From assembly GCA_013821615.1 (NCBI GenBank), contig JACDGQ010000001.1, positions 1 to 39,448 of the forward strand: a stretch of DNA of 39,448 nt. The letters run 5' to 3'. The DNA is from Planctomycetota bacterium (GTDB lineage: Bacteria; Planctomycetota; UBA11346). This document shows positions 7,936 through 39,103 of this stretch, in pieces (positions within the stretch are counted from its first letter, which is position 1; every line of letters starts with the position of its first letter). The notes under the pieces are model-generated. The model was given only the letters and a program-made list of their open reading frames with translations. It was not told the DNA's origin and ran no database searches. The position numbers and the translations under genes were made by a program.

Positions 7936-10290
7936 TCACATCCACACCGGGACTTGGATGAAGAAGTCGTAGTGGGCGACGGCGGTGCCGGCCTGTCCGG
8001 TCTTCAGCACGCCACATGCGATGGTCCAGGTGCTGGGTGGAATGGTCTTCGTGCCATCGCCCTGGAGCTGCGTGGTGCTGGTGATCCAGGCCACGGCCAA
8101 GCTGGGGTACTCCGGGTAGAGCGTGATCGAGTAGACGTTCGAGCCGGTCTTGGCGGTGATCTTTCCAACCATCGCCGGATGCTGGCCGTGGCTGGTCCCG
8201 CCAGCGGCAGCGCTGTTCTTCCAGGTGCTCGTGGCCGCGTCATAAGCCAGCACCTGCTTGTCCAGCGGCGCGGTGACGGCCACATCTTCCAGCGCATCCA
8301 GGGTGTGGTTGATGAGCGAGGTGACGCCACTCTTCGAGGTCAGGATCTGCAGCGTGCCGCCGGGATTGCCCGGCAGCCGCGTCGGCGCACCGGTGGCCCC
8401 GCCGACGATCAGATCGCCGACCGTGGTCATCGGGTTGGCCAGCAGGTTGGTTACCGGATCGCCCAGGTGGTAGTCAACCCCGGCGATGGTGAGGTAGTCC
8501 TTCACCAGCTTGGCGTTGGTGACGGTGCCATCGGCGATCTTCGGTCCGGTGACGGCGTTCGCCGCCAACTCGGCGGTGCCCACCGCGTTTGCTGCGATCT
8601 GGGCGTTGGCGGTGGTGCCAGTGAGGTCGCCGCCGAGGATGTGGTCGTGCGGTTCCGGCGGGAAGGTCGCCGGAACGTTGGTGAGCTTCGCCCAGGCCAC
8701 TGAGACGACCTTGGGATCGGTGATGGCGCCATCGGCGATCTCGGCGGTGCCCACCGCGCCGGCCACGATCTGGGCGTTCGCCGTCGTGCCGGTGAGGTCG
8801 CCGCCCACCGCGTGGTCGTGCGGCGTGGGTGGGAACTGAAATGGTTTCCCGGTGACCTCGCCCCAATCGGGCCAGCGGATCGCGGTCTGCGGTGGGCCGG
8901 TGATTTTGGCCCAGGCGACGGTCACGATCTTGGCGTCGGTGATCGCGCCATCCGCCACAGCGACGGTGGTGACGGCGTTGGCGGCCAGCTTCGGGGCGGT
9001 AACCGCACCATCGGCCAGCTTGCCCGTCGTCACGGCGGCATCGGCAAACGCGCCGGTCGGGATCTGCAGCCACTGGAGCGTGCCGCCCACGCGCAGCAGG
9101 GCGCGGTCGTCGGTCGTTGCTGCGAACGCGGCCGGACGAGCCGACGCTCCGGTGGCATTGGCGAGCACGCTGGTGCCAGCTACCTCCTTCAGGTCGCCAA
9201 CTTCGAAGTCGCGGAACTCTGGCTTGGCATCCGCTCCCGACACCGGCCCAGCGAGCACCTGATGCGCGGGCACCGGGTCAGCGACGATCACGTCGCGCGG
9301 CTTCCAGCGTTCGGCAGCAGCATCCCACAACGCGGCCTGCTCATCCGTGGGCGGGACCGTGATCACATCCACATCGGTCAGGTCGGCGAAGCGCTCGGCT
9401 CCGCCACCAGCGCCGGCGCTTCCGGCGCGCACGACGCAGAGGCGATCCTGGGCATGGTGCAGGACCAGACGGCCGTTCTCGCTCGGCTTGGTCGGCGTTA
9501 GGCCACCGGGCACGCCGGGGTCGAGCCAGTAGTCGGTGTGTGGCGTCAGACCGTCCAGACAGCAGATGCCCCACAGCACCAGCAACGCGGTGTCCACGTC
9601 AGGAATGCGGCCAACCACTGCCAGGACATCGGTGGAGCCGACCACACCGGCATCCGCCAATGCCCAGGTCGCACCGGTCCAGCGCAGCACGTCGCCGACG
9701 AACCAGGCGTGATTGGTGGCGGTAACGTCCAGCACGAGATTCGGTGATCCGCCGGCAGCACCACCGGCGGGAAATTGGACGATGCCCCAGGCCACGCCAG
9801 TGCCGGGTTCTTTCCACAGGATGCGCGCACCGCCTTCGTCGCCCGTGGCCAAGCTGCCGGTCTCGTCGGTGACGATCGCCGCGAGTTCGTCCTCCTCGGC
9901 ATCGATGTCGAGGCGCATCGGCGTGACGCCGGCGACCATCGCCCGGCCGACGCCATTGGCGGCGATGGGTTCCTGCAGGATGCAGAAGCGGTTGGCGTGA
10001 TCATCCTTGTCCGGCGAGATGCCGCTGAAGGTGATGCGCTCCTGAAACGCCTGCGGATTCTCGCTCGGCAGAATGAGTGGATCGTCGAGGCCGAGCACGG
10101 CGAAGCGGCTCTGGTCGGTGCCCGAGTCGTTGCGGATCAGGACGATGCCGGGGATCGCCACTGTCATGCCACCATCGGCCGAGCGTGACTGCCGGCTGGC
10201 CTGGTAGGCCGTGGCGGCATCGACGAACGAGTTGAAGGTCTCGGCGGAGATCTTCAGCGGCTGCCCGGCCGCGACCTTGGCGAGCGTCAC
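7936..10290 (-). CDS. Tail fibre or central fibre protein with internal tandem repeats and HxH motifs
   Basis: The 784-aa ORF has repeated segments at aa ~415-598. These include short AVTxxKLA/IADGAITDxK units and two copies of FPPxPHDHxxGGDLTGTTANAQI. Its position is downstream of the tape measure and a Dit-like gene. Confidence 0.7.
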   Translation of the reverse strand: MTLAKVAAGQPLKISAETFNSFVDAATAYQASRQSRSADGGMTVAIPGIVLIRNDSGTDQSRFAVLGLDDPLILPSENPQAFQERITFSGISPDKDDHANRFCILQEPIAANGVGRAMVAGVTPMRLDIDAEEDELAAIVTDETGSLATGDEGGARILWKEPGTGVAWGIVQFPAGGAAGGSPNLVLDVTATNHAWFVGDVLRWTGATWALADAGVVGSTDVLAVVGRIPDVDTALLVLWGICCLDGLTPHTDYWLDPGVPGGLTPTKPSENGRLVLHHAQDRLCVVRAGSAGAGGGAERFADLTDVDVITVPPTDEQAALWDAAAERWKPRDVIVADPVPAHQVLAGPVSGADAKPEFRDFEVGDLKEVAGTSVLANATGASARPAAFAATTDDRALLRVGGTLQWLQIPTGAFADAAVTTGKLADGAVTAPKLAANAVTTVAVADGAITDAKIVTVAWAKITGPPQTAIRWPDWGEVTGKPFQFPPTPHDHAVGGDLTGTTANAQIVAGAVGTAEIADGAITDPKVVSVAWAKLTNVPATFPPEPHDHILGGDLTGTTANAQIAANAVGTAELAANAVTGPKIADGTVTNAKLVKDYLTIAGVDYHLGDPVTNLLANPMTTVGDLIVGGATGAPTRLPGNPGGTLQILTSKSGVTSLINHTLDALEDVAVTAPLDKQVLAYDAATSTWKNSAAAGGTSHGQHPAMVGKITAKTGSNVYSITLYPEYPSLAVAWITSTTQLQGDGTKTIPPSTWTIACGVLKTGQAGTAVAHYDFFIQVPVWM

Positions 10291-19970: not shown

Positions 19971-22241
19971 CTACCGCCGTTCACTGCGCATTGCCGACAA
20001 CTTCAGACGAGACTTTGGAACACCGCTCAGCTTGACGTCGGTGCTGGGCAGACCGACGCCAAGCATCGACGCGCCCACCGCGCATCCGACGACTCCATCG
20101 AACCAATGGTTATCGAATCCTTCGGGCCGCAGGCGCCACTCATCGACCACGCGTCCACGACCTTCGGTCCGCACCCGGTACTCGGCGGTCAGGTGTTCGG
20201 CGATCAGGCGATGCCGCTCCGGATCATGACCTGGAAGCGACAAGCAGCCGGGATCACCCATCGGCACCGCGAGGCGGGTGTGGATGAACGACTTCCAGTG
20301 GTTGGTGTCGTAAAGCAGATGGCGGACGGTGTGCCTGCCGACCACCGCTGGGATGCGCCAATGGAGACCCGTGCGATCGCCGCGTTTGCGGCGGTACTCG
20401 GTGAATGGAATCGACGCTGCGCCGACGAAGCGGCCGTGGCTGGGCGTGATGAGCGCGGTGTGCGGCGACTGCCGGCAGAATTGGTACACCACGTCGGTGC
20501 TCTGACCCCAATTCGCATCGATCAGCAAGCGCTCGATGGTCAACTCAGCTCCATCGTCCCGGCACCAACGCCGTCCCATCAACTGGCTGGTGGCCGCTTC
20601 GAGGCCGGCGTAAATCTGTCCTTCCAGACCGGCGCCCTTGGTGGCCGCCGCCATGGTGATGCGCAGATCCCGCAGGGTGTAATAGGTCCGGCGCTGGTCC
20701 GGCCAGGTTCCGTAGTCGAGGACGTAGCCGGTGAAATCATCACTCCAGCCGCACACCACCCAGAACAGCGCCTTCTGCTGCACGTCGATGAAGGCCGTGA
20801 GGTGGCTGGCATCGAGCGGCACCACGCCGCGCTCGTGACCGTTGATCTTTGCCATGATCAGATCTGCGGTGAGTGCATCGTTTTCCTCGCTGACCTCGGG
20901 CAGCGGCTGGTTCTGGTACTCGGCCCAGAATGCCACTTCGCCCTGGAGCTTGAGATTCATTGCGTGTTGGAGCGCTGAGACTTCGTCGTGGTTGTAGCGC
21001 GCCTCCCAGGCGACGCGGGCACCGGCATCCATCTCGACGCGGTGGGCCACGTAGTACGCGGTGGCATCCGCCAGTCCGCGCCCAGCACGCATGCCGTCAC
21101 CACGCAACTTGGCGTATTCTTCCCAGCGCTTCGTCGCCGTGGGGAAGCTGTAGACCATCTGCGTCCGCTCACCGTTCCATTCCGGATGGAGGTTCCGGTC
21201 GAGAATCCGGTCGGCCATGTCGGCTGGCCGAATCACCGTGCAGGGCATCATCCCAGCGATCTTCTTGCCGGGACCAGCCAAGCCGAGGACCGCACCAGAC
21301 AAGATCGCTTCGCGGTGCTGGCACTGACTTGGTGAGCGTGCGCTCTCGTCGGTCTGTGGATCGTCGAGGACGACAAGCGATGGACGCACCGCACGGCCAT
21401 CCGGCCGCTTGAACTTCATCCCACGGATGCGACCGGTGATGCCGGCCACCTTGATGATCGCTCCGCTGGCTTTCGATCCTGGGATGGTGGGAAGAATGAT
21501 CTCCTTGGCGGTCCAACCGATGTGCGTGCGGCTGCCTCGGAAGAGCTGGCCGTTGGCGCGGTGGGAGATGCCCTCCAAGGCGTGGATGGGATAGACCGCC
21601 TCGGGGAAATCCGCGAGCAGCAGCTCGTTGATCTCCAACTCGGTCTTCAGCGAATCCAGCATGTCCGAGGCGTGCTGTTCATCGGAGCCGATGAGGCAAA
21701 CGAACTCACGGTGCCCGTAGAGGATCGCCCACAGGCAGGCGCATTCTGCGATTGTGGTTTTTCCGGATCCGCGCGGCATGGCGAGCGCGAACAGGCCGCC
21801 TTGCAGGACGGACTCTTCGACCTTGGCGATGACACGCAGGTGATCTTCTGACCAGCCGAGGTGGAAGACCTCTGGAAAATAGGATTCGCAGAACGCACGA
21901 AAGCTGCGCTCGGCAGTCGCCCGACGCGGCGGGTTCTCTACCGGCGGCAGGTCACCGATGTCGCGGCCCGACTCCGACTTCAAGCGGTCGCGGTCGGCAG
22001 TCGCTTCGCGGTGCGTGGCGTAGCCGCCATCGGGTATGCGCTGCGCCGCTGGTGCATGCACCTGGTCCATGAGCCACGCCAAGTAGCGCAGAAGGTCAAC
22101 ACTGCGGCCGTCGCCGATGCGGAAGCCCGCGCGCGTGCGGTGGCGATGGAGCTGCCGCTCGGAGATGACTGCTCCGAGCGCCGAGCTGTTGAGCAGCCGC
22201 GCGAGATCGGCCGGCTTGAGGTGATGTGGATCAACCGGCAT
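19971..22241 (-). CDS. Terminase large subunit (GpA-type)
   Basis: Walker A is AMPRGSGKTT and Walker B is LVVLDDPQTDES. The C-terminal nuclease region reads LIDANWGQSTD ... GFDNHWFDGVVGCAVGASMLG. I prefer ATG 22241 (MPVDPHH). The first ~60 aa look like a Nu1-type winged-helix segment. Confidence 0.9.
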   Translation of the reverse strand: MPVDPHHLKPADLARLLNSSALGAVISERQLHRHRTRAGFRIGDGRSVDLLRYLAWLMDQVHAPAAQRIPDGGYATHREATADRDRLKSESGRDIGDLPPVENPPRRATAERSFRAFCESYFPEVFHLGWSEDHLRVIAKVEESVLQGGLFALAMPRGSGKTTIAECACLWAILYGHREFVCLIGSDEQHASDMLDSLKTELEINELLLADFPEAVYPIHALEGISHRANGQLFRGSRTHIGWTAKEIILPTIPGSKASGAIIKVAGITGRIRGMKFKRPDGRAVRPSLVVLDDPQTDESARSPSQCQHREAILSGAVLGLAGPGKKIAGMMPCTVIRPADMADRILDRNLHPEWNGERTQMVYSFPTATKRWEEYAKLRGDGMRAGRGLADATAYYVAHRVEMDAGARVAWEARYNHDEVSALQHAMNLKLQGEVAFWAEYQNQPLPEVSEENDALTADLIMAKINGHERGVVPLDASHLTAFIDVQQKALFWVVCGWSDDFTGYVLDYGTWPDQRRTYYTLRDLRITMAAATKGAGLEGQIYAGLEAATSQLMGRRWCRDDGAELTIERLLIDANWGQSTDVVYQFCRQSPHTALITPSHGRFVGAASIPFTEYRRKRGDRTGLHWRIPAVVGRHTVRHLLYDTNHWKSFIHTRLAVPMGDPGCLSLPGHDPERHRLIAEHLTAEYRVRTEGRGRVVDEWRLRPEGFDNHWFDGVVGCAVGASMLGVGLPSTDVKLSGVPKSRLKLSAMRSERR

Positions 22242-22470
22242 GGCCGCCTTCCCGGTGCGCGAGATCACGCACCAGCCAAGCGCCATAGGCGATGAGGTTG
22301 ATGGTGGCATCAGCGTTCTGCGGTGCGCCTGCCGCGAGGTCTGCGCGCACCGTGTCCACCGAGGCCTGCCGCGAGCCGCTGCGCTTCAGCAGCAGGACCA
22401 CGGCCTCCACCGACAGGGCGGTGAGACGGGCTCCGCCGGCATCCGGGGCGTTGGGCTTATCAAGTACCAT
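22231..22470 (-). CDS. Possible terminase small subunit or DNA-recognition protein (79 aa)
   Basis: ATG 22470 gives MVLDKPNAPDAGGARLTALSVEAVVLLLKRSGSRQASVDTVRADLAAGAPQN...INLIAYGAWLV. The HTH-like pattern is similar to the N-terminus of TerL. The ORF overlaps the TerL start by 11 nt. Confidence 0.4.
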   Translation of the reverse strand: MVLDKPNAPDAGGARLTALSVEAVVLLLKRSGSRQASVDTVRADLAAGAPQNADATINLIAYGAWLVRDLAHREGGHAG

Positions 22471-22501
22471 CAGCACCTCCGTGGACCGGGCCGGTTCGCT
22501 G

Positions 22502-22591
22502 ATGATGCACCGACCCCACGGTGCCGGACTCAACTGGATGTGGCCGATGTGCATCGGTAACACGAACCGGAGTCACCCACGGAAACGCCCC
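22502..22591 (+). repeat. Copy A of a duplicated 90-nt module preceding an accessory gene
   Basis: The copy contains ATGATGCACCG, an 18-nt variable stretch, then CAACTGGATGtgGCCGATGTGCATcGGTAACACGAAC and 24 further nt up to ATG 22592. Copy B has the same layout exactly 504 nt downstream. Confidence 0.9.
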
Positions 22592-22954
22592 ATGACCGAC
22601 GCCGCCCAAATCCCTGCCACTACCCCCGCCGCCGAAGCCGCTGGGGTGGTGTTCCGCTCCTTCACCCGCGAGGACTGGCACGGCTTCGCCGGCGCCGAGC
22701 GCTTCGCCGACGGCTCGGAGCCCTTGGCCGCCGAAGGACGCGCCACGCTCGCGGCCAAGCGCGCGTGGTTCGTGATCCTCGATGCTACCGGCGGATGCCT
22801 GATGATCGAAGACGACCCGCAGAACGACTTCGGCGGCTACTGCCTTCACCACGCGTTCGCCTCGCCCGCCGACGCCGAGGCCTGGTTCCGCGCCAAGGTC
22901 GGCACCCCGGCCCACCTGCTCGACTTCCTGATGGCCGGCTTCGCCGCCGTCTGA
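22592..22954 (+). CDS. Hypothetical accessory protein A (120 aa, or 150 aa if it starts at ATGATG 22502)
   Basis: The plus-strand frame has sensible composition (MTDAAQIPATT...FRSFTREDWHGFAGAERF...CLMIEDDPQNDFGGYCLHHAFASPADAEAWF). The overlapping 700-aa minus-strand ORF is Arg/Gly-rich junk. I recognised no family. Confidence 0.6.
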   Translation: MTDAAQIPATTPAAEAAGVVFRSFTREDWHGFAGAERFADGSEPLAAEGRATLAAKRAWFVILDATGGCLMIEDDPQNDFGGYCLHHAFASPADAEAWFRAKVGTPAHLLDFLMAGFAAV

Positions 22955-23005
22955 GCCACAGGGAAAAGTACTACCAGCGAACGTGTTCCGCCGATCACCA
23001 ACAGC

Positions 23006-23095
23006 ATGATGCACCGGTTTTTCACAGCGAAACGCAACTGGATGACGCCGATGTGCATGGGTAACACGAACAGCAGTACCCAACGGAAACCAACC
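23006..23095 (+). repeat. Copy B of the duplicated 90-nt module
   Basis: The copy contains ATGATGCACCG, an 18-nt variable stretch, then CAACTGGATGacGCCGATGTGCATgGGTAACACGAAC and 24 further nt up to ATG 23096. Confidence 0.9.
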
Positions 23096-23638
23096 ATGGC
23101 CAAGCGCCCAACCACCCACTCCACCACCCCGACCGCCGCGCCCACCGAGCGCGACGCGGTCATCGCCAGCATCGCCCAGAGCCACCTTGGTCTGGAGACC
23201 ATGGAGAGCCGGAACCAGGACCGCCTCGATTTCCAAGAGCACTCGTGCCTGTCCATCCGCGACGCCCTGCGCGCAGCCTTCGACGCCGGCCGGAAGTCCA
23301 CCCGTCGCCCTGCGCGCACGGCCACTGCGATCGTGGGCGACCTGGTGCTGACCAGCGCGAAGCCCACCGACGGAACGCCCGGCTGGGCCACCGGCCGGGT
23401 CGGCGCCTTCCGCTTCTGCGCCAAGGTCTACGCCGGGCACGCCCTGGTGCCTTCCTACGAGATCGGCCGCAGCCGGATCTCGAAGCTCGAGCTGCGCCGC
23501 CTCGACACCGACGCGGTTGCCTACGCCTGGGATCGCGGCCTCGACATCCCGGCCGCCGACACCGCCGCGCAGGCTGCGGTGGACTCGCTGGCCAAGCACC
23601 TCGCCGAACACCTCTACGGAGCAGCCAGCGTCGGCTGA
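23096..23638 (+). CDS. Hypothetical accessory protein B (180 aa, or 210 aa from 23006). Its N-terminal domain resembles a short domain recurrent in plasmid and phage polyvalent or anti-restriction-associated proteins.
   Basis: The segment ERDAVIASIAQSHLGLETMESRNQDRLDFQEHSCLSIRDALRAAFDAG matches, from memory, the IAxxHLGIETLETRNSDSLDFHEVxVWxxxxALEAAYxAG pattern (DUF6900-like, unverified). A second domain reads FRFCAKVYAGHALVPSYEIGRSRISKLELRR. Confidence 0.55.
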   Translation: MAKRPTTHSTTPTAAPTERDAVIASIAQSHLGLETMESRNQDRLDFQEHSCLSIRDALRAAFDAGRKSTRRPARTATAIVGDLVLTSAKPTDGTPGWATGRVGAFRFCAKVYAGHALVPSYEIGRSRISKLELRRLDTDAVAYAWDRGLDIPAADTAAQAAVDSLAKHLAEHLYGAASVG

Positions 23639-23649
23639 CCCATCACCCA

Positions 23650-23678
23650 CCCGGCCGGAATTCCTCCGGCCGGGTTTC
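23650..23678 (+). terminator. Rho-independent terminator-like hairpin after accessory gene B
   Basis: CCCGGCCGGA-attcc-TCCGGCCGGG forms a perfect 10-bp stem and is followed by TTTC. Confidence 0.6.
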
Positions 23679-23701
23679 ACCACTGCATCACGGAGATTCC
23701 C

Positions 23702-24106
23702 ATGCCCAGCGCCCGCAAACCCACCACCGCCAAGGCGAGCAAAGCCAAGATCAGCACCAAGCCGAAGAACCGGAAGGCCAAGGCCCAACCGAAGCCCGAG
23801 GCGGCGGTCGTTCCCGCCGTTGAACTCCAGGCTGCGGTGCCGCCCGCTGCCGGCCCCGACGCGCCAGCGGGCGCCAGTAAAACGCTCTCTGGCCTGGACG
23901 CCGCCGCGATCGTACTGCGTGAAGCGAGCGCGCCGCTGAACGCCCAGGACCTCGTCGGCCTCATGCTCGAACGCGGCCTCTGGAAGACCGAGGGCAAGAC
24001 CCCGGCCGCGACGATCTACGCCGCGATGATCCGTGAGATCCGGTCCAAGGGTTCGACCAGCCGGTTCCTCAAGGCGGATCGGGGCCGCTTCGCCGCTGTC
24101 GGCTGA
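23702..24106 (+). CDS. HARE-HTH domain protein with a Lys/Ala-rich histone H1-like N-terminus
   Basis: The N-terminus is KPTTAKASKAKISTKPKNRKAKAQPKPE. The C-terminus LSGLDAAAIVLREASAPLNAQDLVGLMLERGLWKTEGKTPAATIYAAMIREIRSKGSTSRFLKADRGRFA fits the HARE-HTH (HB1/ASXL/restriction endonuclease HTH) pattern. GGAG lies 8 nt upstream of the ATG. Confidence 0.7.
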   Translation: MPSARKPTTAKASKAKISTKPKNRKAKAQPKPEAAVVPAVELQAAVPPAAGPDAPAGASKTLSGLDAAAIVLREASAPLNAQDLVGLMLERGLWKTEGKTPAATIYAAMIREIRSKGSTSRFLKADRGRFAAVG

Positions 24107-24120
24107 GAGCACCACCACGA

Positions 24121-25365
24121 TCAGACGCTTCCTGCAGCCCCGGCTTCCGCCGGGGTCTGCTCGTTCATGGCGGCGGCGATGCGATTGGCCTGCTTGCCGG
24201 TGAACTGCTCCCAGCGCTTCACGATCACATCGCAGTAGCGCGGATCGAGTTCCATGAGCCGGGCGTGGCGTCCAGTTTGCTCGGCAGCGATGATGGTGGT
24301 GCCGGAACCGCCGAATGGATCGATGACCACGCCGCCAGGCGCGCAGGAATTTTGCACCAGGTAGAGGAACAGCGGCACCGGCTTCATCGTCGGGTGCTCG
24401 CCGTTGCGGCTCGGCTTGTCGAACTCCAGCACCGTGGTCTGGCAGCGGTCCGACAACCAGGTGTGGCCGGCGCCATCCTTCCAACCGTAGAGGCACGGCT
24501 CGTGCTTCCATTGGTAGTCCTGGCGACCGAGCACCAACGACGACTTCACCCAGACCAAGCACTGGCGCACGGTCAGACCGATCTCGGCGCAGGCCCCGCG
24601 CACGGTCAGTCCCTCCGAGTCGGCGTGCCAGCAGTAGAACGCACCACCGGCGCGCAGCACCGCGACTGAGGTTCCGAGGCTGGCCACAAGGAACTTCCGG
24701 TACGAGGCATCGTCCATGTCGTCATTGGCGATGGTCATCGCCGCGTCGGTGCCGCCCTCGTAGGCGACGTTGTACGGCGGATCGGTGAGCAGCAGATCGG
24801 CGTGGCCACCGTCCATCAGTCGCGCGATGTGATCTGGCTCGGTGCTGTCGCCGCAGAGCAGCCGGTGATCGCCGAGCACCCACAGGTCGCCGGGCTGCGT
24901 GAGGGTCTGCCCAGCATCGGGAACCGGCGGGATCTCATCGGGATCGGTGAGGCCCTCGCGCACACCAGGGTCGAGCAGCTTCGCCAATTCCTCCGCATCG
25001 AAACCCAAGGTGGCGAGATCCAGATCGAGATCGCTGCCCTCGATTGCCTTCAACTCGATGCCGAGCTTCTCCAGATCCCACTCCGCGATTTCGGCGGTCT
25101 TGTTGTCGGCGATGCGCAGCGCGCGGATCTGGTCGGCGGTCAGTTCAACCGCGACATGGACCGGCACCTCGGTGAGGCCGAGCTGCTTGGCAGCGCGCCA
25201 GCGGGTGTGGCCGATGACGATCACGCCGTCGCCATCCACGACGATGGGCTGGCGGAAGCCGAACTGGCGGATGCTCTCGGCCACGGCCGGCACCGCATCG
25301 TCGTTCTGGCGGGGGTTGTTCGTGTAGGGCCGGATGGAGTCGATGGGCCGGAATTCGATGTGCAT
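24121..25365 (-). CDS. ParB-like nuclease domain fused to an N6-adenine/N4-cytosine DNA methyltransferase
   Basis: I chose ATG 25365 (MHIEFRPIDSIRPYTNNPRQN...IVIGHTRWRAAKQLG), which starts the ParB/Srx domain. The methyltransferase motifs are LLLTDPPYNVAY (motif IV) and VIDPFGGSGTTIIAAEQTGR (motif I). No restriction partner is present in the window. Confidence 0.9.
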   Translation of the reverse strand: MHIEFRPIDSIRPYTNNPRQNDDAVPAVAESIRQFGFRQPIVVDGDGVIVIGHTRWRAAKQLGLTEVPVHVAVELTADQIRALRIADNKTAEIAEWDLEKLGIELKAIEGSDLDLDLATLGFDAEELAKLLDPGVREGLTDPDEIPPVPDAGQTLTQPGDLWVLGDHRLLCGDSTEPDHIARLMDGGHADLLLTDPPYNVAYEGGTDAAMTIANDDMDDASYRKFLVASLGTSVAVLRAGGAFYCWHADSEGLTVRGACAEIGLTVRQCLVWVKSSLVLGRQDYQWKHEPCLYGWKDGAGHTWLSDRCQTTVLEFDKPSRNGEHPTMKPVPLFLYLVQNSCAPGGVVIDPFGGSGTTIIAAEQTGRHARLMELDPRYCDVIVKRWEQFTGKQANRIAAAMNEQTPAEAGAAGSV

Positions 25366-25526
25366 GTGGTGGTCCTGGTCAGGGGTGGCGGGGCTGGTCG
25401 GCGGGCAGCCGGACAACCTGGGGAAAGTGACTCGAACTCGGTGGCTGTTCCCTTGGGCAAGGAGGAAGCCATTCGGCGGGGGAGGACCCGTTGATCTGTC
25501 GATCATTTCGACAGTCGATCAGCCGT

Positions 25527-25726
25527 GTTTCCCATCGCTCGTTGCCCGTCTGTTTCCCATCTCGGGGAAACGCAGGTGGGAAACATCGCTGCCCCGTTTC
25601 CCGTTTCCCACCTCTGCGCCCTATAGGGCGCGCAGAGGAGTGGGAAACAGTCTCGGGAGGTACGGGTTTGAGGGTGTTTCCCACTTCCAGAACGAGGTGG
25701 GAAACAGAGGTGGGAAACAGGGAAAC
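25527..25726. repeat. Iteron-like array of about 12 copies of GTTTCCCA / TGGGAAAC around a large imperfect palindrome
   Basis: Forward copies lie at 25527, 25552, 25596 (partial), 25603 and 25676. Reverse copies lie at 25564 (partial), 25577, 25641, 25698, 25711 and 25720 (partial). The palindrome CCTCTGCGCcctatagggcGCGCAGAGG (25611-25638) is flanked by inverted motif copies. The array lies between the primase-helicase stop (25732) and the methylase start (25365). Confidence 0.85.
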
Positions 25727-25731
25727 AGGCT

Positions 25732-33071: not shown

Positions 33072-33109
33072 ATTACTCCCCGCCGAGCTGCCTTTTTTGT
33101 CGTGCGTTC
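33072..33109 (-). promoter_or_regulatory. Copy Y of a repeated ~38-nt element, a candidate promoter of the leftward replication operon
   Basis: Read on the minus strand it is GAACGCACGACAAAAAAGGCAGCTCGGCGGGGAGTAAT, ending 66 nt upstream of the nuclease ATG. A near-identical element (copy X) lies at 19928-19966. Confidence 0.45.
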
Positions 33110-33121
33110 ATCACCGCAGCC

Positions 33122-33223
33122 CTGTGTCCCCAGGGTCACAGGACTGCGACAGGACTCTGTCCCCGCTGCACAGGTCGCGGGGACTTCTCGAACAGGTTCT
33201 GCGATAGCGCCGTGTCCCCGCTG
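33122..33223. promoter_or_regulatory. Operator-like repeats in the divergent early control region
   Basis: TGTCCCCGCTG occurs at 33158 and 33213, 55 nt apart. An inverted partial copy GCGGGGAC lies at 33177 and forms an 8-bp inverted repeat with 33159-33166. TGTCCCCA occurs at 33125. CACAGGAC and GACAGGAC occur at 33137 and 33148. Confidence 0.4.
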
Positions 33224-33291
33224 TTGGCGTGAGGTGTCGCTCGTTCCGCCGGCGCGTTGCCGGTCGGGACATCAACCCGAGCGAGCCAGCC

Positions 33292-33810
33292 ATGTCCGAT
33301 AGCGTCACCATCACCATCAACACCTACGAAGGCGTCCTGCCTCTCTGGGCACATGAACTCACCCAGGTCTATGCCAAACGGCTGGGATACCGTCCCGACG
33401 AAATCGACGACGGTCTTCAGGAAGTGGCGATCGCCTTCGCCAAGTACCGCTTCGATCACACGCGAAATACCGGTGCCTGCGAACGCACGGCGCAGACCGC
33501 CCTGATCCGCAACGTGCTGCAGAAAGTCCAACGTGGTCAGGTGCGCTACACGCAGCGCCTGGAGTGCCTCCGCGCCGAGCCCCAGCGCCCCGAGGCTGGA
33601 CCCGACACGGTGGCCCAGCACGAACTGTGGCAGGTGGTGGCGGCGATGCCCGAGCCCGACCGCGAGATCTGCTTGCGGCTCGCCGCCGGCATGAACACCC
33701 ACGCGATCGCCAAGGAACTCGACATCGGCTGGTACACGGTGAAGCGCGGCATGGAGCGCATTAGGACCAGCTTCGCCGAAGCGGGCATCGATAGCGGACT
33801 CTTGGCCTGA
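33292..33810 (+). CDS. ECF-like sigma-70 family factor (regions 2 and 4)
   Basis: Region 2 reads LQEVAIAFAKYRFDHTRNTGACERTAQTALIRNVLQKVQR. Region 4 with its HTH reads ELWQVVAAMPEPDREICLRLAAGMNTHAIAKELDIGWYTVKRGMERIR. ATG 33292 is in frame with the track ORF 33229..33810. Confidence 0.65.
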   Translation: MSDSVTITINTYEGVLPLWAHELTQVYAKRLGYRPDEIDDGLQEVAIAFAKYRFDHTRNTGACERTAQTALIRNVLQKVQRGQVRYTQRLECLRAEPQRPEAGPDTVAQHELWQVVAAMPEPDREICLRLAAGMNTHAIAKELDIGWYTVKRGMERIRTSFAEAGIDSGLLA

Positions 33811-33811
33811 C

Positions 33812-34081
33812 ATGCTCCAGCATCATTCCGCTCCGCCGGAACCGGCAGACATCACTGGATGTCCGCCGGAGTCCCGGCAACAGATGAAGGACCAAGGGGC
33901 GAATCCTCGCCCCTTGGCGGATGCCTGGATCAGCGACGACCTCCTTGCGGAAGCCATCGCCGTCTGGTCCCGGCTCTACCGCCGACCGATCGGCAAGGAG
34001 GAAGCCGTGGAAATGCTGCAGAACGTCAAACGCGCAGGCGAGGTGATCTACCGAATCGCTCGGGAGCAGGCTCAACCATGA
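33812..34081 (+). CDS. Hypothetical small protein, possibly a recombination directionality or regulatory factor by position
   Basis: The stop overlaps the recombinase ATG (an ATGA overlap). A shorter start at MKDQG (33884) is possible. I recognised no family. Confidence 0.4.
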   Translation: MLQHHSAPPEPADITGCPPESRQQMKDQGANPRPLADAWISDDLLAEAIAVWSRLYRRPIGKEEAVEMLQNVKRAGEVIYRIAREQAQP

Positions 34082-35613
34082 AGGTGCTGATCTGGACACG
34101 TGTCAGCTCCCGAGAACAGCGCGAAGGCTATTCCATCGACGCGCAGATGCGGGTCTGTCGTGAACGGGCCGAGCGGCAGGGCTGGACGGTGCTCCGCGAG
34201 TTTCAGGTTGCCGAGTCAGCCAAGCGCGGCGCCGAACGACTCGCCTTCAACGAGATGTTCGCGTGGGTGCGGAGGAACGCGAAACGGGAAGGCCTGGAGG
34301 TCATCCTCGCCCACAAGCTCGACCGCGTCTGCCGCAACATGAAGGACGCAGTCCGCCTGCAGGAATTGGAGGACCAATGCGGGGTCAAGCTGGCCTTCGT
34401 CGACAACCAGTTCGGCACCGGCGCATCTGGGGTGCTGTCGTTCAACGTGATGGCGGCAGTGGCGCAGTATTACAGCGACAATCTCCGGTCGGAGGTCCTC
34501 AAGGGTATGGAGGAGAAGATCCGCCAGGGCTGGCCGATGGGCCGGGCGAGCTACGGCTACAAGAATGTTCCCGACAGGTCCTGCCCGGTGGTGCCTCATC
34601 CCGAGAAGGCCAAGACCGTGGTGCAGATCTTCGACTGGTTCTCGACCGGCCAGTACACCCTGGATGCCCTGGGTGACCGCTTGCTCGCCGAGGGCCATGA
34701 GTTCCGGACGACCTACCCTCGGTTCAACCGCACCGCCTTGGCCTACATCCTCCACAACCGGGGGTACATCGGCGAGATCGTCCACCGGGGGGTCTCACAC
34801 GTCGCCAAGTTCCAACCGCTGGTCTCACGGACGACGTTCGATGCCTGCCAGGTGGTGCTGAAGGGACGCAACCGCCGTTCATCCACCCCAGACCTGCCCT
34901 ACCAAGGCGGCGTCTTCCGGTGCGCCCATTGCGGGGCGATGATGACCGGCGAGCGGATCGTCCGCCGGCACAACGACGGCACCGAGGCGCGCCACGTCTA
35001 CTACCGGTGCGCCAACAACGCCCCGCCGGCGGAGCACCCGAAGGTGCGCTGGAAAGCCGCCGACCTGGAAGCTGCCGTTGTCGCCGAGTTGGAGACCCTG
35101 CGCATCCACGACGAAGGACACGCCCAGTTGATTCGCAGCACCCTCAAGGCCGCCTTTGCCGACGTGGCCAAGGCTGAGGAGGATCGCCGCCGCGTTTTGT
35201 TGAAACGCCAAAGCGAGTTGAAGGGGAGACTGGATCGACTGCTCAACGCCTACCTCGAAGGGGTGATCGAGCAGGCTCCGTTCTCGGTCAAGCAGGGCGA
35301 GCTTCGTGTGGAATTAGCCGATATTTCCAGGCAACTTGAGGAGCGGCCGACCTTCGATCCCAAGCGCGGGGAACTGGCCCTGGGGCTCTTCGACTTCATG
35401 CAGAACGCCGCGAATCTGTGGCGGCGTTCAAACATGGAGCAAAGGCGTGAGCTTTTGGCTGCGATAGCTTTGAACCGCAATGTTAGCGACGTAAAGCTTG
35501 TGCTAGAAAAGAGAAAGCCCTTCGACATTGCTGTCGAAGGGCAAGTATTCCATTTTGGTCGGACCGACAAGATTCGAACTTGCGACCTCTACCACCCCAA
35601 GGTAGCGCTCTAA
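34078..35613 (+). CDS. Large serine recombinase (integrase)
   Basis: MKVLIWTRVSSREQREGYSIDAQ carries the catalytic Ser motif of the resolvase domain. The recombinase domain (WPMGRASYGYKN) follows. The Zn-ribbon reads CAHCGAMMTGE...YYRCAN, and a coiled-coil region follows it. The last 58 nt are antisense to tRNA-Pro (...RTDKIRTCDLYHPKVAL). Confidence 0.9.
   Translation: MKVLIWTRVSSREQREGYSIDAQMRVCRERAERQGWTVLREFQVAESAKRGAERLAFNEMFAWVRRNAKREGLEVILAHKLDRVCRNMKDAVRLQELEDQCGVKLAFVDNQFGTGASGVLSFNVMAAVAQYYSDNLRSEVLKGMEEKIRQGWPMGRASYGYKNVPDRSCPVVPHPEKAKTVVQIFDWFSTGQYTLDALGDRLLAEGHEFRTTYPRFNRTALAYILHNRGYIGEIVHRGVSHVAKFQPLVSRTTFDACQVVLKGRNRRSSTPDLPYQGGVFRCAHCGAMMTGERIVRRHNDGTEARHVYYRCANNAPPAEHPKVRWKAADLEAAVVAELETLRIHDEGHAQLIRSTLKAAFADVAKAEEDRRRVLLKRQSELKGRLDRLLNAYLEGVIEQAPFSVKQGELRVELADISRQLEERPTFDPKRGELALGLFDFMQNAANLWRRSNMEQRRELLAAIALNRNVSDVKLVLEKRKPFDIAVEGQVFHFGRTDKIRTCDLYHPKVAL
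35501..35541 (-). terminator. Intrinsic terminator-like hairpin 15 nt downstream of the tRNA-Pro 3' end, lying inside the recombinase ORF
   Basis: On the minus strand CCCTTCGACA-gcaa-TGTCGAAGGG forms a perfect 10-bp stem. It is followed by CTTTCTCTTTTCT. Confidence 0.6.
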
Positions 35614-35634
35614 TCCAGGCTGAGCTACGGTCCG
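35556..35634 (-). tRNA. tRNA-Pro (anticodon GGG) with encoded CCA
   Basis: I folded it by hand as CGGACCG TA GCTC AGCCTGGATTA GAGC G CTACC TTGGGGT GGTAG AGGTC GCAAG TTCGAAT CTTGT CGGTCCG A CCA. All four stems pair. U33 and G37 flank the GGG anticodon, and the T-loop is TTCGAAT. Confidence 0.9.
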
Positions 35635-35680: not shown

Positions 35681-38600
35681 TTATTCCTTGGCGGCCAGCG
35701 CCGGGGTGGGCGTCGCGGCGGTGGAAGCCGGGTCGAGCGGCGCGTTTGAACGTTCCGCGGTGTCCAAGGTCGGCGCGCGCGGCACCTGGTCGGTGAGGGC
35801 GCCGGCGGCACCGCCTCCGCCGCCAAAGGTCCTCCGCCACCATGCCGAGAGATCGTCGAACAGTGTATACGCCACCGGGGTGACCAGCAGCGACAGCAGC
35901 AGGCTGAGCGCCTGGCCGCCGACGATGACGCGCGCCATGGCGGCGCGGCGGCCCGATCCGGGGCCTTCGCCGAGGGCGATCGGCACCATGCTGGCGATCA
36001 GCATCAGGGTGGTCATCAGGATCGGGCGCAGGCGCACGCGGTTGGCCTCGATCACCGCCCACAGCCGGCTGCGCCAGGCGGGATCGTGGCGGCCGACCCA
36101 GGCCCACCAGCGGCCAGCGCCGGTCGGATCGGCATAGGCGGCGGGCAGCAGTCCGGGCTCGCCGCGCAACCGCGCGCGCAGCACGTTGGCGTAATCGACC
36201 TGCAGGATGCCGTTCTTCTTGACGATGCCGAAGAGCAGGAAGATGCCGAGGATCGAGTAGATGGTCAGCGGCTGGCCGAGCAGGATCAGCGAGATCAGCG
36301 CGAAGGGGATGGTGACCGGCACCGCGAGCAGGATCGCGATCGGCATCACGAAGCTCTCGAACTGCGCGGCCAGCACCATGTACATGAACACCAGCGACAG
36401 GCCAAAGGCGAGCAGGAAGCCCTGGTTGGCCTCGACCTGGACCTTGGCGCGGCCGCCGGCGACCAGGCGGTAGTCGGCGGGCATGCCGACCGCGGCCCCG
36501 GCCGCGACGAAGGCCGCGGCGGCCTCGCTGGTCGGGATGCCGTTGAGGTTGGCGACGATGCTGATCTTGCGCACGCGGTTGTAGCGGTCGATCTGCGCCG
36601 GGCCGCGCGCCTCGGTCAGGGTGGCGATGCTGGCCAGGCGCACCGGCGGGCCCCTGGTGGAGGGCACGGTGAGCGCCTCGAGCGCAGGCACGCCGTCGCG
36701 GTCCGGCCCGCGCGCGCGCAGCCACACGTCGTAGAGCTCGCCCAGGCGTGCGTCCTTGAAGTCCGAGACCACTTCGCCGCCGACCAGGGTGCCGAGCGCG
36801 CGCGCGGCGGCCTGCACCGACACGCCCTGGTCGCTGGCGCGCTCGCGGTCGATGACCACGCGGATCTCAGGCTTGCGCAGGGCCAGGGTGGTGTCGACGT
36901 CGCTGAGGTCGCCACGCAGGCGCAGCTTCGCGACGATCGCGTCGGCGTAGGCGCCCAGGCGCTCCAGGTCGGGGCCGACCAGCGCGAACTCGACGTCGGC
37001 GTTGACGCCACCGCTGCCGCCGGATGCGGGCTGGATGCTGGTGCGCAGGTCGGGCCAAGCGGCGACGATGGCGCGCGCGCGCGTCATCAGGTCGGCCTGG
37101 GTGAAGCGCCGCCCATCCGCCCCTGGCTGCCGCTGCAGCAGGTCGACCAGGCGCACGTAGATGGTGCCCTTGGTGACCTCGCCGGCGGCCTTGGTGATGC
37201 GCCCCGAAGTGTCGCCGATGGTGGTGAGCAGGTCGACGACCTCGGGCTGGGCGCGCAGGCGCGCCTCGAGCGCGCGGAAGGTGGCGTCGCTGCGCTCCAG
37301 CGTCCAGCCGGGTGGGGTGGTGATGGCGATCTCGAATTCGCTCTGGTCCTCGGTGGGCACGAAGTCGACGCCGGCGATCGCCGCCAGACCGGGGAAATCG
37401 AGCCAGGCGAGGCGCTGCTGCGTGGCCGCGTCGCCGAACGCCAGCCACCTGCCGAACGGCAGCGGGAACAGCAGCAGCGCCACCGCCAGGGCCATGGTCA
37501 TCACCAGCGCGCGCCGGCGCAGCGCCCAACGCAGCGCGGCCAGGTAGGGCCGCTCGATCCAGCGCCCGTAGAGCCCGCCGCTGTGGTGGTCGGCGCGCCC
37601 GCCCGGCGGCGCCGGCTTCAGCTTGAGGAAGCGCGACGCCAGCATCGGCGTGAGCACGAAGCTGACCAGCATCGAGACCAGGATCGCGACCGCCATGGTG
37701 ATGCCGAAGGAGTGGAAGAAGCGCCCCACGCGCCCGCTCATGAAGGCCACCGGCAGGAAGATCACCACCAGCGACAAGGTGGTCGCCACCACCGCCAGGG
37801 CGATCTCGCGGGTCGCGCCGAGCGCCGCGTCCCAGGCGCTGACGCCCTTCTCCTCCATCCAGCGGAAGATGTTCTCGTTCACCACCACCGCGTCGTCGAT
37901 GACCACGCCCACCGCCATGACCAGGGCGAGCATGGTGATGTTGTTGAGCGTGAAGCCCAGCCAGCCCATGACCATGAAACTGGCGATCAGCGAGATCGGG
38001 ATGGACAGCGAGGCGATGATCATGGTCCGCCAGTCGCGCAGGAAGAGCAGGATCGAACCCGCGACCAGCAGCGCGCCCAGGAAGAGGTGCTTCTCGATCT
38101 CGTGCAGCGAGCCGCTGATGAACACCGACTGGTCGCGGATCAGGGTGAAGCGCAGGTCGGTGCGCCCGTCTTTGCGGAAGCCCTCGGCGATTCCGGCGAG
38201 CCTGGCCTTCACCCGCGCGATGACGTCGATGGTGTTCGTGCCGCTCTGCTTCTGGACGACCAGCAGCACCGCGTTCTGCCCGTCCAGCCGGCCCACCGAG
38301 CGGGGCTCCTCGATGCCGTCGGCGACGGTGGCGATATCGGCGATGCGCACCGGCTGGCCGGCCTTCTGCGCGACGATGACGTCGGCGAAGCGCGCGGGAT
38401 CGGTGATGCGCCCCATGGTGCGCAGGATCGGCTCGCGTCCCGCCTGGTCGACGCGCCCACCGGGCGACTCGACGTTCTGGCCCTGCAGCCCCTGGCGGAC
38501 CTGGTCGATGGACAGGCCGTAGGCCTCGAGCCGCGCCGCGTCGGCGGTGATGGTCACCGCGCGGCGCTGGCCACCGACCAGTGACACCGCACCGACGCCG

Positions 38601-39103
38601 TCGACGCTGCTGAGCACGTCCTGGACCTGGCGGCGCGCGATCTCGGTGACCTCGCGCAGGCTGCGCTGGCCGTCGACGGCGACGGTCAGCACCGGCGCGG
38701 CGTCGAAGTCGAACTTGTCGATGATCGGCGCCTGGGTGCCGGTGGGCAGCGCCGCCAGCACGGTGTTGATCTTGCCCTGGACCTCCTGCTGGGCGATGTC
38801 GCGGTTCTTCTCGAGCAGGAAGACGATCGTCACCGACGAGATGCCCTCCTTGCTGGTGCTGCGCAGCTCGTCGATGCCGCTGATGGTGTTGACCGCGTCC
38901 TCGATGACCTTGGTGACACCGGTCTCCATCTCCTCGACCGAGGTGCCCGGGCGGGTGGTGGTGACGATCACCACCGGCAGGTCGACGTTGGGCATCAGGT
39001 CGACGCCGATGCGCGCGAACGCGATCAGGCCGGCGACCACCGGGAAGAGCAGCAGCATGCAGGCGAACACCGGCCGGCGGATGCACAGCTCCGGCAGGTT
39101 CAC
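35681..39103 (-). CDS. RND efflux transporter permease subunit (AcrB/HAE1-like)
   Basis: The 1140-aa protein starts MNLPELCIRRPVFACMLLLF. It has typical 12-TM RND blocks (VVIDDAVVVNENIFR, FLRDWRTMIIASLSIPISL) and two large periplasmic loops. It sits in the very high-GC host-like block. Confidence 0.9.
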   Translation of the reverse strand: MNLPELCIRRPVFACMLLLFPVVAGLIAFARIGVDLMPNVDLPVVIVTTTRPGTSVEEMETGVTKVIEDAVNTISGIDELRSTSKEGISSVTIVFLLEKNRDIAQQEVQGKINTVLAALPTGTQAPIIDKFDFDAAPVLTVAVDGQRSLREVTEIARRQVQDVLSSVDGVGAVSLVGGQRRAVTITADAARLEAYGLSIDQVRQGLQGQNVESPGGRVDQAGREPILRTMGRITDPARFADVIVAQKAGQPVRIADIATVADGIEEPRSVGRLDGQNAVLLVVQKQSGTNTIDVIARVKARLAGIAEGFRKDGRTDLRFTLIRDQSVFISGSLHEIEKHLFLGALLVAGSILLFLRDWRTMIIASLSIPISLIASFMVMGWLGFTLNNITMLALVMAVGVVIDDAVVVNENIFRWMEEKGVSAWDAALGATREIALAVVATTLSLVVIFLPVAFMSGRVGRFFHSFGITMAVAILVSMLVSFVLTPMLASRFLKLKPAPPGGRADHHSGGLYGRWIERPYLAALRWALRRRALVMTMALAVALLLFPLPFGRWLAFGDAATQQRLAWLDFPGLAAIAGVDFVPTEDQSEFEIAITTPPGWTLERSDATFRALEARLRAQPEVVDLLTTIGDTSGRITKAAGEVTKGTIYVRLVDLLQRQPGADGRRFTQADLMTRARAIVAAWPDLRTSIQPASGGSGGVNADVEFALVGPDLERLGAYADAIVAKLRLRGDLSDVDTTLALRKPEIRVVIDRERASDQGVSVQAAARALGTLVGGEVVSDFKDARLGELYDVWLRARGPDRDGVPALEALTVPSTRGPPVRLASIATLTEARGPAQIDRYNRVRKISIVANLNGIPTSEAAAAFVAAGAAVGMPADYRLVAGGRAKVQVEANQGFLLAFGLSLVFMYMVLAAQFESFVMPIAILLAVPVTIPFALISLILLGQPLTIYSILGIFLLFGIVKKNGILQVDYANVLRARLRGEPGLLPAAYADPTGAGRWWAWVGRHDPAWRSRLWAVIEANRVRLRPILMTTLMLIASMVPIALGEGPGSGRRAAMARVIVGGQALSLLLSLLVTPVAYTLFDDLSAWWRRTFGGGGGAAGALTDQVPRAPTLDTAERSNAPLDPASTAATPTPALAAKE

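Follow-up and report, generated by a model that had tools for sequence, protein, structure and literature searches.

A repeated non-coding leader in a variable accessory-gene slot of a temperate phage lineage with probable planctomycete hosts

We analysed a stretch of 39,448 nucleotides from a Planctomycetota bacterium (assembly GCA_013821615.1, contig JACDGQ010000001.1, positions 1 to 39,448; hereafter the window), which has a G+C content of 65.8% and a prophage inside it. Between the packaging genes of this prophage and a gene for a ParB–DNA methyltransferase fusion lies a cassette of three plus-strand genes, here called g1, g2 and g3. It forms an accessory-gene slot, variable in content, in a lineage of temperate phages that probably infects Planctomycetota, and it is transcribed in the direction opposite to that of the packaging genes and the ParB-methyltransferase gene on either side. 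Its best-documented feature is a leader of about 95 nt that precedes both g1 and g2, which an earlier note on this DNA had mentioned only in passing. Comparison of its copies indicates that the leader is constrained as nucleotides and not as codons, and is thus non-coding.

A leader shared by unrelated genes

Leader copy 1 (22498–22591, plus strand) stands before g1 and copy 2 (23001–23095, plus strand) before g2. Over 70 nt including the start codons (22528–22597 versus 23032–23101) the two are 81% identical, and the similarity extends 5′ as far as ATGATGCAC, at 22502 and 23006. A 36-nt core occurs twice in the window and not once in 100 shuffles, which bears out the duplication the earlier note had reported. 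The copies represent two variants: a ‘first-position’ form with the palindrome GCACCG-N6-CGGTGC (copy 1) and an internal form with TTTC-N5-GAAA (copy 2).

Further copies were collected by exact-pattern scans of IMG/VR, of one genome per GTDB species and of JGI metagenomes, followed by an nhmmer profile search over the fetched loci. This yielded 24 distinct full copies in 15 related loci (numbered with an L below), with a maximum of three per locus; the metagenome-assembled genomes that carry them are mostly labelled Planctomycetota. The aligned leader consists of four near-invariant blocks (ATGATGCAC; AC.CAACTGGATG; CGATGTGC.T.GGTAACACG; CAGTACCC(C)AACGGAG) with variable stretches between them. 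A Shine–Dalgarno-like GGAG or GGAA at the 3′ end lies 7–8 nt 5′ of the ATG across copies. The distance from the GGTAACAC block to the ATG is 28 nt in 26 of 31 copies, 27 or 31 nt in four, and 37 nt in an uncertain copy of L014.

Five unrelated families of open reading frames (ORFs) follow the leader: g2, g1, a 105-aa acidic protein, proteins of 110–122 aa and an 85-aa protein. The 560-aa ORF that follows the leader in L014 has the look of a spurious ORF on the antisense strand and does not enter this count of families. Leader pairs within one genome are 70–93% identical, whereas their coding sequences cannot be aligned. Among the 24 copies the palindrome variant is found solely in the first, terminase-proximal leader, whether g1 or g2 lies downstream; the 5′ part of the leader therefore tracks position and not gene. 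Because the same leader precedes unrelated ORFs, it may serve as a homology patch that lets one ORF be exchanged for another, or gained and lost. Two such ‘leader–ORF’ units, g1 and g2, are present in the window, whereas g3 has its own GGAG only.

Some relatives have a third copy before an extra ORF (L004, 9235–9329, minus strand; L009, 7496–7539, interrupted by the contig end; L040, 9803–9897), and the weaker relative L033 has kept the 3′ part alone (GGGTAAC...AAACGGAAG...ATG). Two more distant relatives carry duplicated elements of unrelated sequence. In the same slot of L037 a 66-nt leader (7708–7773 and 8341–8406, 83% identity) precedes g2 and the next gene, and in L042 a 21-nt element with the palindrome ATGAAGCGTTCAT (6956–6976 and 7203–7223, 90% identity) precedes a gene of the DUF6900 family, to which g2 belongs, and the gene after it. 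This is how lineage-specific promoters or operators would be expected to look.

The codon positions of the leader are about equally conserved, with mean column entropies of 0.58, 0.50 and 0.52 at positions 1, 2 and 3 and no third-position relaxation. All 24 copies carry GGT and AAC unchanged, wobble base included, in a genome whose genes have a G+C content at third codon positions (GC3) of about 0.85, and the codons that do vary change radically (for example W/R/L/P/Q). The frame to the ATG is broken in three of the 24 copies, by a TAA in L014 and by a one-base deletion (−1 shift) in L018 and L035. Neither codon-level purifying selection nor an intact frame in every copy, as a targeting peptide would require, was found among the 24 copies, and we rejected a coding leader on the codon-position entropy and the broken frames.

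We conclude that the 3′ third of the leader, with its GGAG ribosome-binding site, is in all likelihood a 5′ untranslated region where translation starts, and that the 5′ two-thirds probably act as a promoter and/or operator specific to the lineage. As a whole we read the leader as a putative portable promoter/operator plus translation-start module, the promoter function of which we infer. Three results count against a promoter. A sigma-70 scan of the leader returned no sigma-70-like hexamers; a sigma-54 promoter, considered by eye, was rejected, the GG–GC spacing being 15 where 12 is needed; and neither the motif nor parts of it were found in other intergenic regions of the prophage, nor did a regulon link to a known factor emerge. 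An extracytoplasmic function (ECF)-like reading, AAC-N15-CGAT, is possible as speculation, with a spacing shorter than usual by one to three bases. The prophage encodes a 193-aa protein (33229–33810) with a weak, sub-threshold ECF-sigma-like match (E=0.0056), which may or may not be relevant to the leader.

There is a slim chance that the leader instead works through RNA structure, as a riboswitch, an attenuator or a site of antitermination, or as an Frpo-like single-strand hairpin promoter. Its repeated placement 5′ of genes recalls Frpo repeats, and short local hairpins are possible, GCACCG/CGGTGC in first-position leaders and TTTC/GAAA in internal ones (with two G-U variants). However, a search of the whole window against Rfam at gathering thresholds found one tRNA only, and at E≤10 the matches in the cassette were no more than chance-level, with none for the leader. 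RNAalifold on the leader copies gave a consensus of −1.3 kcal/mol with zero compensatory pairs, a hand-drawn three-helix model (ATGCAC/GTGCAT, TTTC/GAAA, GGGTA/TACCC) showed covariation no better than controls, and single-sequence folds as RNA or DNA had z-scores of −1.8 to +1.4, not better than shuffles. That the leader is a translated N-terminal extension of 30 residues (MMHR..NWM.PMC.GNT..), such as a capsid-targeting or secretion signal on varied cargo, is highly improbable: such a peptide would account for the open frame in 21 of 24 copies, for the nearly invariant ATGATG and for the extension by gene callers of at least ten g2 homologues through the leader (MMH..FTA.LNWM.PMC.GNT...), but the codon evidence above opposes it, the ribosome-binding site lies before the downstream ATG with none consistently before ATGATG, and the fixed spacing of 28 nt to the ATG is enough to explain why the frame is constant.

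Among known elements, the start-associated sequences (SAS) and their extended forms (ESAS) of cluster K mycobacteriophages offer a parallel in placement; a 13-bp SAS, with an optional pair of 17-bp inverted repeats, stands before 11–19 genes per genome (Pope et al. 2011, PMC3203893). Like these, the leader is a conserved non-coding motif directly 5′ of start codons that includes the ribosome-binding region and is repeated within a genome; unlike them, it is far longer at ~95 nt, unrelated in sequence and limited to one to three genes within one slot, and it belongs to another group of phages. Its fixed short distance to the ATG fits the start-associated type, as an analogy and not as membership. 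In the internal-protein loci of T4-type phages a conserved capsid-targeting 5′ segment is translated and cleaved. The leader shares with that segment its position before unrelated small ORFs in a hyperplastic locus, where it probably aids cassette exchange by recombination, and differs in that its codon analysis argues against translation.

Cassette genes and the slot in related genomes

The gene calls agree with the three plus-strand genes that the earlier note had placed between the terminase genes and the methylase, and with its identification of g3. g1 (22592–22954, plus strand) encodes a 120-aa protein with the motif PFTxxDWxGFAGAExFxDGxEP. It had been described as lacking any recognised family, and indeed Pfam, NCBIfam and PADLOC returned no match, the only hit being a weak one to PHROG 9866 (E=0.0087). 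Its AlphaFold model has a predicted local distance difference test (pLDDT) score of 89. By profile search the uncatalogued g1 family comprises 659 clusters at 50% identity and has no Pfam entry. Most members are standalone proteins of ~100 aa, and some are built into larger ORFan proteins, as a domain at the C-terminus or in tandem. The C-terminal form (PFT..DW.G.AGAE.F.DGSEP) occurs in the proteins P0257, P0271, P0344 and P0355, in tandem in P0271, and Pfam found nothing in ten larger proteins carrying the domain. A distant member in an unrelated phage lies among small genes, adjoining DUF932.

g2 (23096–23638, plus strand; start at 23096) encodes 180 aa with two Pfam domains that pass their thresholds: DUF6900 at residues 19–68 (PF21841, 63.4 bits against a gathering cut-off of 24.1) and DUF7678 at residues 97–169 (PF24726, 51 bits against 27). 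The stretch GRSRISKLE includes I128-S129-K130, invariant in the family. The AlphaFold model has a pLDDT of 77 overall and above 90 in the C-terminal domain. The earlier note had likened the N-terminal domain to a module of anti-restriction-associated and polyvalent proteins. The association part holds in terms of neighbourhood, as Burkholderia plasmids carry 60-aa DUF6900 genes beside genes for a DNA methyltransferase, ParB, DUF932, an annotated antirestriction protein and LPD7/LPD29. The polyvalent part fared less well: a profile search found at least 1279 DUF6900 protein clusters, and the best-scoring 120 are all standalone, at 54–108 aa. In L003 (2021–2647, minus strand) the g2 gene retains the leader and DUF7678, with another N-terminal domain in place of DUF6900, which indicates domain swapping at the g2 N-terminus.

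g3 (23702–24106, plus strand) encodes 134 aa, with a Lys/Ala/Pro-rich N-terminal tail that includes the KAKA-rich stretch already noticed and a HARE-HTH winged helix at residues 66–131 that passes the Pfam threshold (PF05066, 48.4 bits against 25.9). Its own GGAG, also reported before, lies at 23692–23695, 6 nt 5′ of the ATG.

Starting 10 nt 3′ of the g2 stop codon is a GC-rich hairpin (23649–23675, plus strand), whose stem measures 11 bp and whose loop measures 5 nt. It is kept in eight loci with compensatory changes in six of 14 predicted pairs and a consensus of −25.7 kcal/mol, so the strong hairpin proposed earlier stands. Its designation as a terminator is more tentative, because no U-tract follows the stem (TTTCACC in the window, CTTCACC or CATCACC in relatives) and the terminator scan did not call it. 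The hairpin is likely to be a terminator, an attenuator or an RNA-stability element, and would limit or stabilise the transcript before g3. The minus strand has a terminator-like hairpin followed by TTTTC (22973–22995) in the gap that separates g1 from leader 2, and this could keep antisense transcripts from running through the cassette; hairpins of this kind are within chance expectation (2 found versus 1.0 expected).

About 15 neighbourhoods were inspected, among them those of g2 and g1 homologues. The slot contains g1, g2 and a HARE-HTH gene in L003 and L040; g2, HARE-HTH and a ribbon-helix-helix/PIN toxin–antitoxin pair in L030 and L032; and additional leader–ORF units in L004, L035 and L040. 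In L037 the HARE-HTH gene stands 5′ of g2, and in L044 a Fic and a ParD-like gene lie beside the slot. L033 has g2 alone, with Prim-Pol directly after it; the one relative without the ParB-methylase gene also lacks the HARE-HTH gene, a single case that fits a link between both. The trio whose co-occurrence the earlier note had proposed to check is thus not a fixed unit: g1 is optional, with other ORFs in its place, whereas g2 and the HARE-HTH gene are nearly constant and recur as a pair beside the ParB-methylase in many relatives. Ten further cassette ORFs of relatives gave nothing significant in Pfam, and the cassette itself had no blastn match among 50,697 phage records.

The order terminase, DUF6900, HARE-HTH or DUF3489, ParB-methylase is found both in planctomycete-type and in lambda-like phages. 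A standalone DUF6900 gene (63–70 aa) occupies the first position of the slot in a metagenome contig and in a prophage that Planctomycetales bacterium ZRK34 carries, and is followed there by two small ORFs, HARE-HTH, a 118-aa ORF and the ParB-methylase. Lambda-like wastewater phages, which carry a GpA_ATPase terminase, ClpP, HDPD and Phage_cap_E, likewise have a standalone DUF6900 gene (63–70 aa) in first position, and in them a DUF3489 protein replaces HARE-HTH. We take DUF3489 to be a winged helix, an assignment that for g3 rests on Pfam instead; BLASTP detected no similarity between g3 and the DUF3489 protein of L042.

The surrounding prophage

Genes of the prophage include tail and head genes, a lambda-type portal and a gpA-type large terminase, as well as a Prim-Pol/AAA_25 protein, a helicase, and DUF669, AAA_24 and DUF3799 proteins. 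From ~4 kb to 33 kb every convincing gene among the GC3-filtered ORFs (GC3≥0.78) is on the minus strand save the cassette block. The claim that the cassette is the only plus-strand block of the prophage therefore applies to this interval, and not to the lysogeny end, where the sigma-like gene (33229–33810) and a serine recombinase gene (33859–35613) are also on the plus strand.

On the 5′ side of the cassette, the large terminase gene TerL, of lambda gpA type (19971–22310, minus strand), matches Pfam GpA_nuclease (3.3e-23) and PHROG 38, ‘terminase large subunit’. To judge from relatives called at 754–761 aa, translation probably begins near 22241, so that the gene would overlap the stop codon of its small upstream neighbour. 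That neighbour (22231–22470, minus strand; 79 aa, GC3 0.79) has a GGAGG ribosome-binding site, occupies the small-terminase position and is divergent from the cassette. It is called in the same place in relatives at 78–79 aa (or longer, 107 aa), and is without a family match in Pfam or NCBIfam. The divergent region between it and g1 measures 121 nt and houses leader copy 1. On the 3′ side, and convergent with the cassette, the neighbouring gene (24121–25506, minus strand; PADLOC MTase_II, 6.5e-130) encodes the ParB_N plus N6_N4 DNA methyltransferase fusion that the earlier note had recognised.

Between 18069 and 19709 (minus strand) a 546-aa ORF is an in-frame portal/capsid fusion. Its portal residues 1–337 are 77% identical to the 494-aa portal of L030, and its last ~210 residues are 68% identical to residues ~470–680 of the 680-aa L030 capsid protein. 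Because ~1.9 kb is absent at this fusion, taking part of the portal and capsid genes with it, the prophage is probably defective in head assembly.

The 225-nt spacer between the Prim-Pol and ParB-methylase genes (25507–25731) holds ~11 copies of GTTTCCC/GGGAAAC in both orientations, which look like iterons of an origin or ParB-domain binding sites, as candidates only. Repeats of GTGTCCCC/GGGGACA at 33090–33230, in the spacer from which the replication operon and the 193-aa gene diverge, look like putative operators. The gene for the large serine recombinase (Resolvase + Recombinase + Zn_ribbon_recom) shares its end with a minus-strand tRNA (35559–35634), and this overlap probably marks the attachment end of the prophage; beyond it lies a host AcrB-type gene (35681–39103, GC3 0.96).

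Possible roles and their significance

For the g2–g3 core we favour, by analogy and with a confidence somewhat short of even, a role in establishment or counter-defence together with the methylase. The constant core would consist of a DUF6900(-DUF7678) protein and a DNA-binding winged-helix protein, in this prophage the basic-tailed HARE-HTH protein, beside the ParB-methylase. Its target would be DNA while the incoming element establishes itself; it might, for instance, protect or mark the phage genome with the methylase, and g1 would be optional cargo. Both the timing of expression and the role itself we infer. The proposal is preferred because DUF6900 and a winged-helix DNA binder are kept beside the ParB-methylase in unrelated phages, because DUF6900 adjoins methylase and ParB genes on plasmids, and because toxin–antitoxin genes in or beside the slot accompany a repeated upstream element.

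The combination of DUF6900, methylase, toxin–antitoxin genes and repeated element mirrors the anti-defence islands in the leading regions of conjugative plasmids, where orphan methylases, toxin–antitoxin genes and many small unknown genes occur with Frpo promoters in repeated copies (Samuel and Burstein 2024, PMC11541004). The likeness extends to the placement of a promoter-type element before several small, mostly uncharacterised genes, and to the presence of DUF6900 itself in such plasmid neighbourhoods. The cassette differs in belonging to a double-stranded DNA phage and in having no known anti-defence gene. Its leader has no long Frpo-like hairpin and no −35/−10 hexamers and thus does not qualify as an Frpo or single-strand initiation (ssi) element, and where the plasmid leading region enters first, first entry of the cassette is hypothetical.

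HARE-HTH (PF05066; Aravind and Iyer 2012) has been reported as a reader of N6-methyladenine (PMC6591016). g3 matches this family and adjoins an N6/N4 DNA methyltransferase gene; in contrast to the known proteins it is small and standalone, with a histone-H1-like basic tail and no nuclease or effector domain. Fusions of a ParB-CTPase fold to an N6_N4 methyltransferase, exactly the architecture of the neighbouring gene, are enriched in prophages, with a role ‘perhaps in anti-defense’ (PMC12704722). To call the fusion a classic anti-restriction device, as the earlier note did, goes beyond this literature; nor does that paper describe an adjacent DUF6900/HARE-HTH cassette.

Several results weaken the establishment or counter-defence proposal. 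At E≤0.1 Pfam found no family in g1–g3 beyond DUF6900, DUF7678 and HARE-HTH, and no anti-restriction or defence family; NCBIfam gave nothing for the three proteins, PADLOC no family at E≤1, and sequence searches of the PDB nothing. No similarity to known anti-restriction and anti-defence proteins (ArdA, ArdB/KlcA, ArdC, Ocr and others) came to light in these sequence searches of g1–g3 or in fold searches of the g1 and g2 models. Fold searches at E≤0.001, with the g1 and g2 models against the PDB and g2 against BFVD, recovered no solved or viral fold, the best matches, human p32 (E=0.076) and Bacillus phage G gp67 (1.1e-3), both being uninformative. The homology and structure checks that the earlier note had called for therefore give its anti-restriction idea no known family to rest on. 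Association with the methylase is not absolute either: L033 has g2 without HARE-HTH or methylase, and the P0056 locus has HARE-HTH and g2 with no methylase nearby. Finally, the cassette is intact although the prophage is probably defective, which fits genes kept for the benefit of the lysogen.

This last point suits moron-type cargo, which would be expressed from the repressed prophage to benefit the lysogen (superinfection exclusion, defence or stabilisation), with the leaders as constitutive promoters insulated from lytic transcription. We consider this unlikely, though it is the main rival reading. Phage morons, as reportedly described by Hendrix and colleagues, are independent promoter–gene–terminator units inserted between phage genes. 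In a similar manner the cassette runs counter to the lytic operons on its two sides and has its own leaders upstream and a hairpin after g2, with no recognisable hexamers or U-tract. Its content differs between close relatives, presence being variable for g1 and the further ORFs and nearly constant for g2 and the winged-helix gene, and the toxin–antitoxin pair in L030 and L032 and the Fic and ParD-like genes of L044 would be apt cargo. Unlike a moron, however, the DUF6900 and winged-helix genes keep their position across very different phages and DUF6900 occurs on plasmids, which points to a core mobile-element function; the leader is reused for several ORFs in one genome; and no PADLOC defence model was matched.

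It is doubtful that the cassette is a regulatory module, in which g3 and a small helical DUF6900 protein would control phage transcription or packaging, for instance of the late operon from the 121-nt region, with the leaders as operators. The location of the first leader in the same intergenic region as the small-terminase-like gene, its position-specific palindrome, the palindromic element in the L042 leaders and the DNA-binding domain of g3 would all suit such control. Yet DUF6900 is also present on plasmids that lack packaging genes, the leader motif occurs nowhere else in the prophage, and HARE-HTH is better known as a DNA-modification reader than as an operator-binding repressor.

The establishment proposal can be carried further, to a version in which we place little confidence: the cassette would be the phage counterpart of a plasmid leading region. 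If cos lay in the spacer between the small terminase gene and g1, as in lambda, the cassette would be at the last-packaged, first-entering end of the virion DNA. Its reversed orientation would then be explained, because the cassette would be read inward from that end, with the leaders as portable early promoters and the core and ParB-methylase providing self-marking protection. The HARE-HTH protein would recognise the methyl mark or coat the entering DNA, and the DUF6900-DUF7678 protein would target or block host DNA-directed defence.

The overall kind of element, an accessory or anti-defence island with repeated expression elements, is known, with morons, plasmid Frpo islands and mycobacteriophage start-associated sequences as its nearest analogues; the leader is not in Rfam, the Pfam domains are only DUFs, and our literature search found no paper that mentions DUF6900. 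If the establishment reading is true, the slot would provide a compact and widely conserved set of candidates for establishment or counter-defence in phages and plasmids (DUF6900, DUF7678, the g1 family and a small HARE-HTH protein), tied to the common, unexplained ParB-methylase fusions of prophages, and if its leading-region version is true, DUF6900 would be an establishment factor common to phages and plasmids. The leader would be an expression element, natural and portable, taken from the phages of a group of bacteria, a phylum, with poorly known promoters, and it may exemplify how a repeated non-coding module organises gene exchange in a phage accessory slot.

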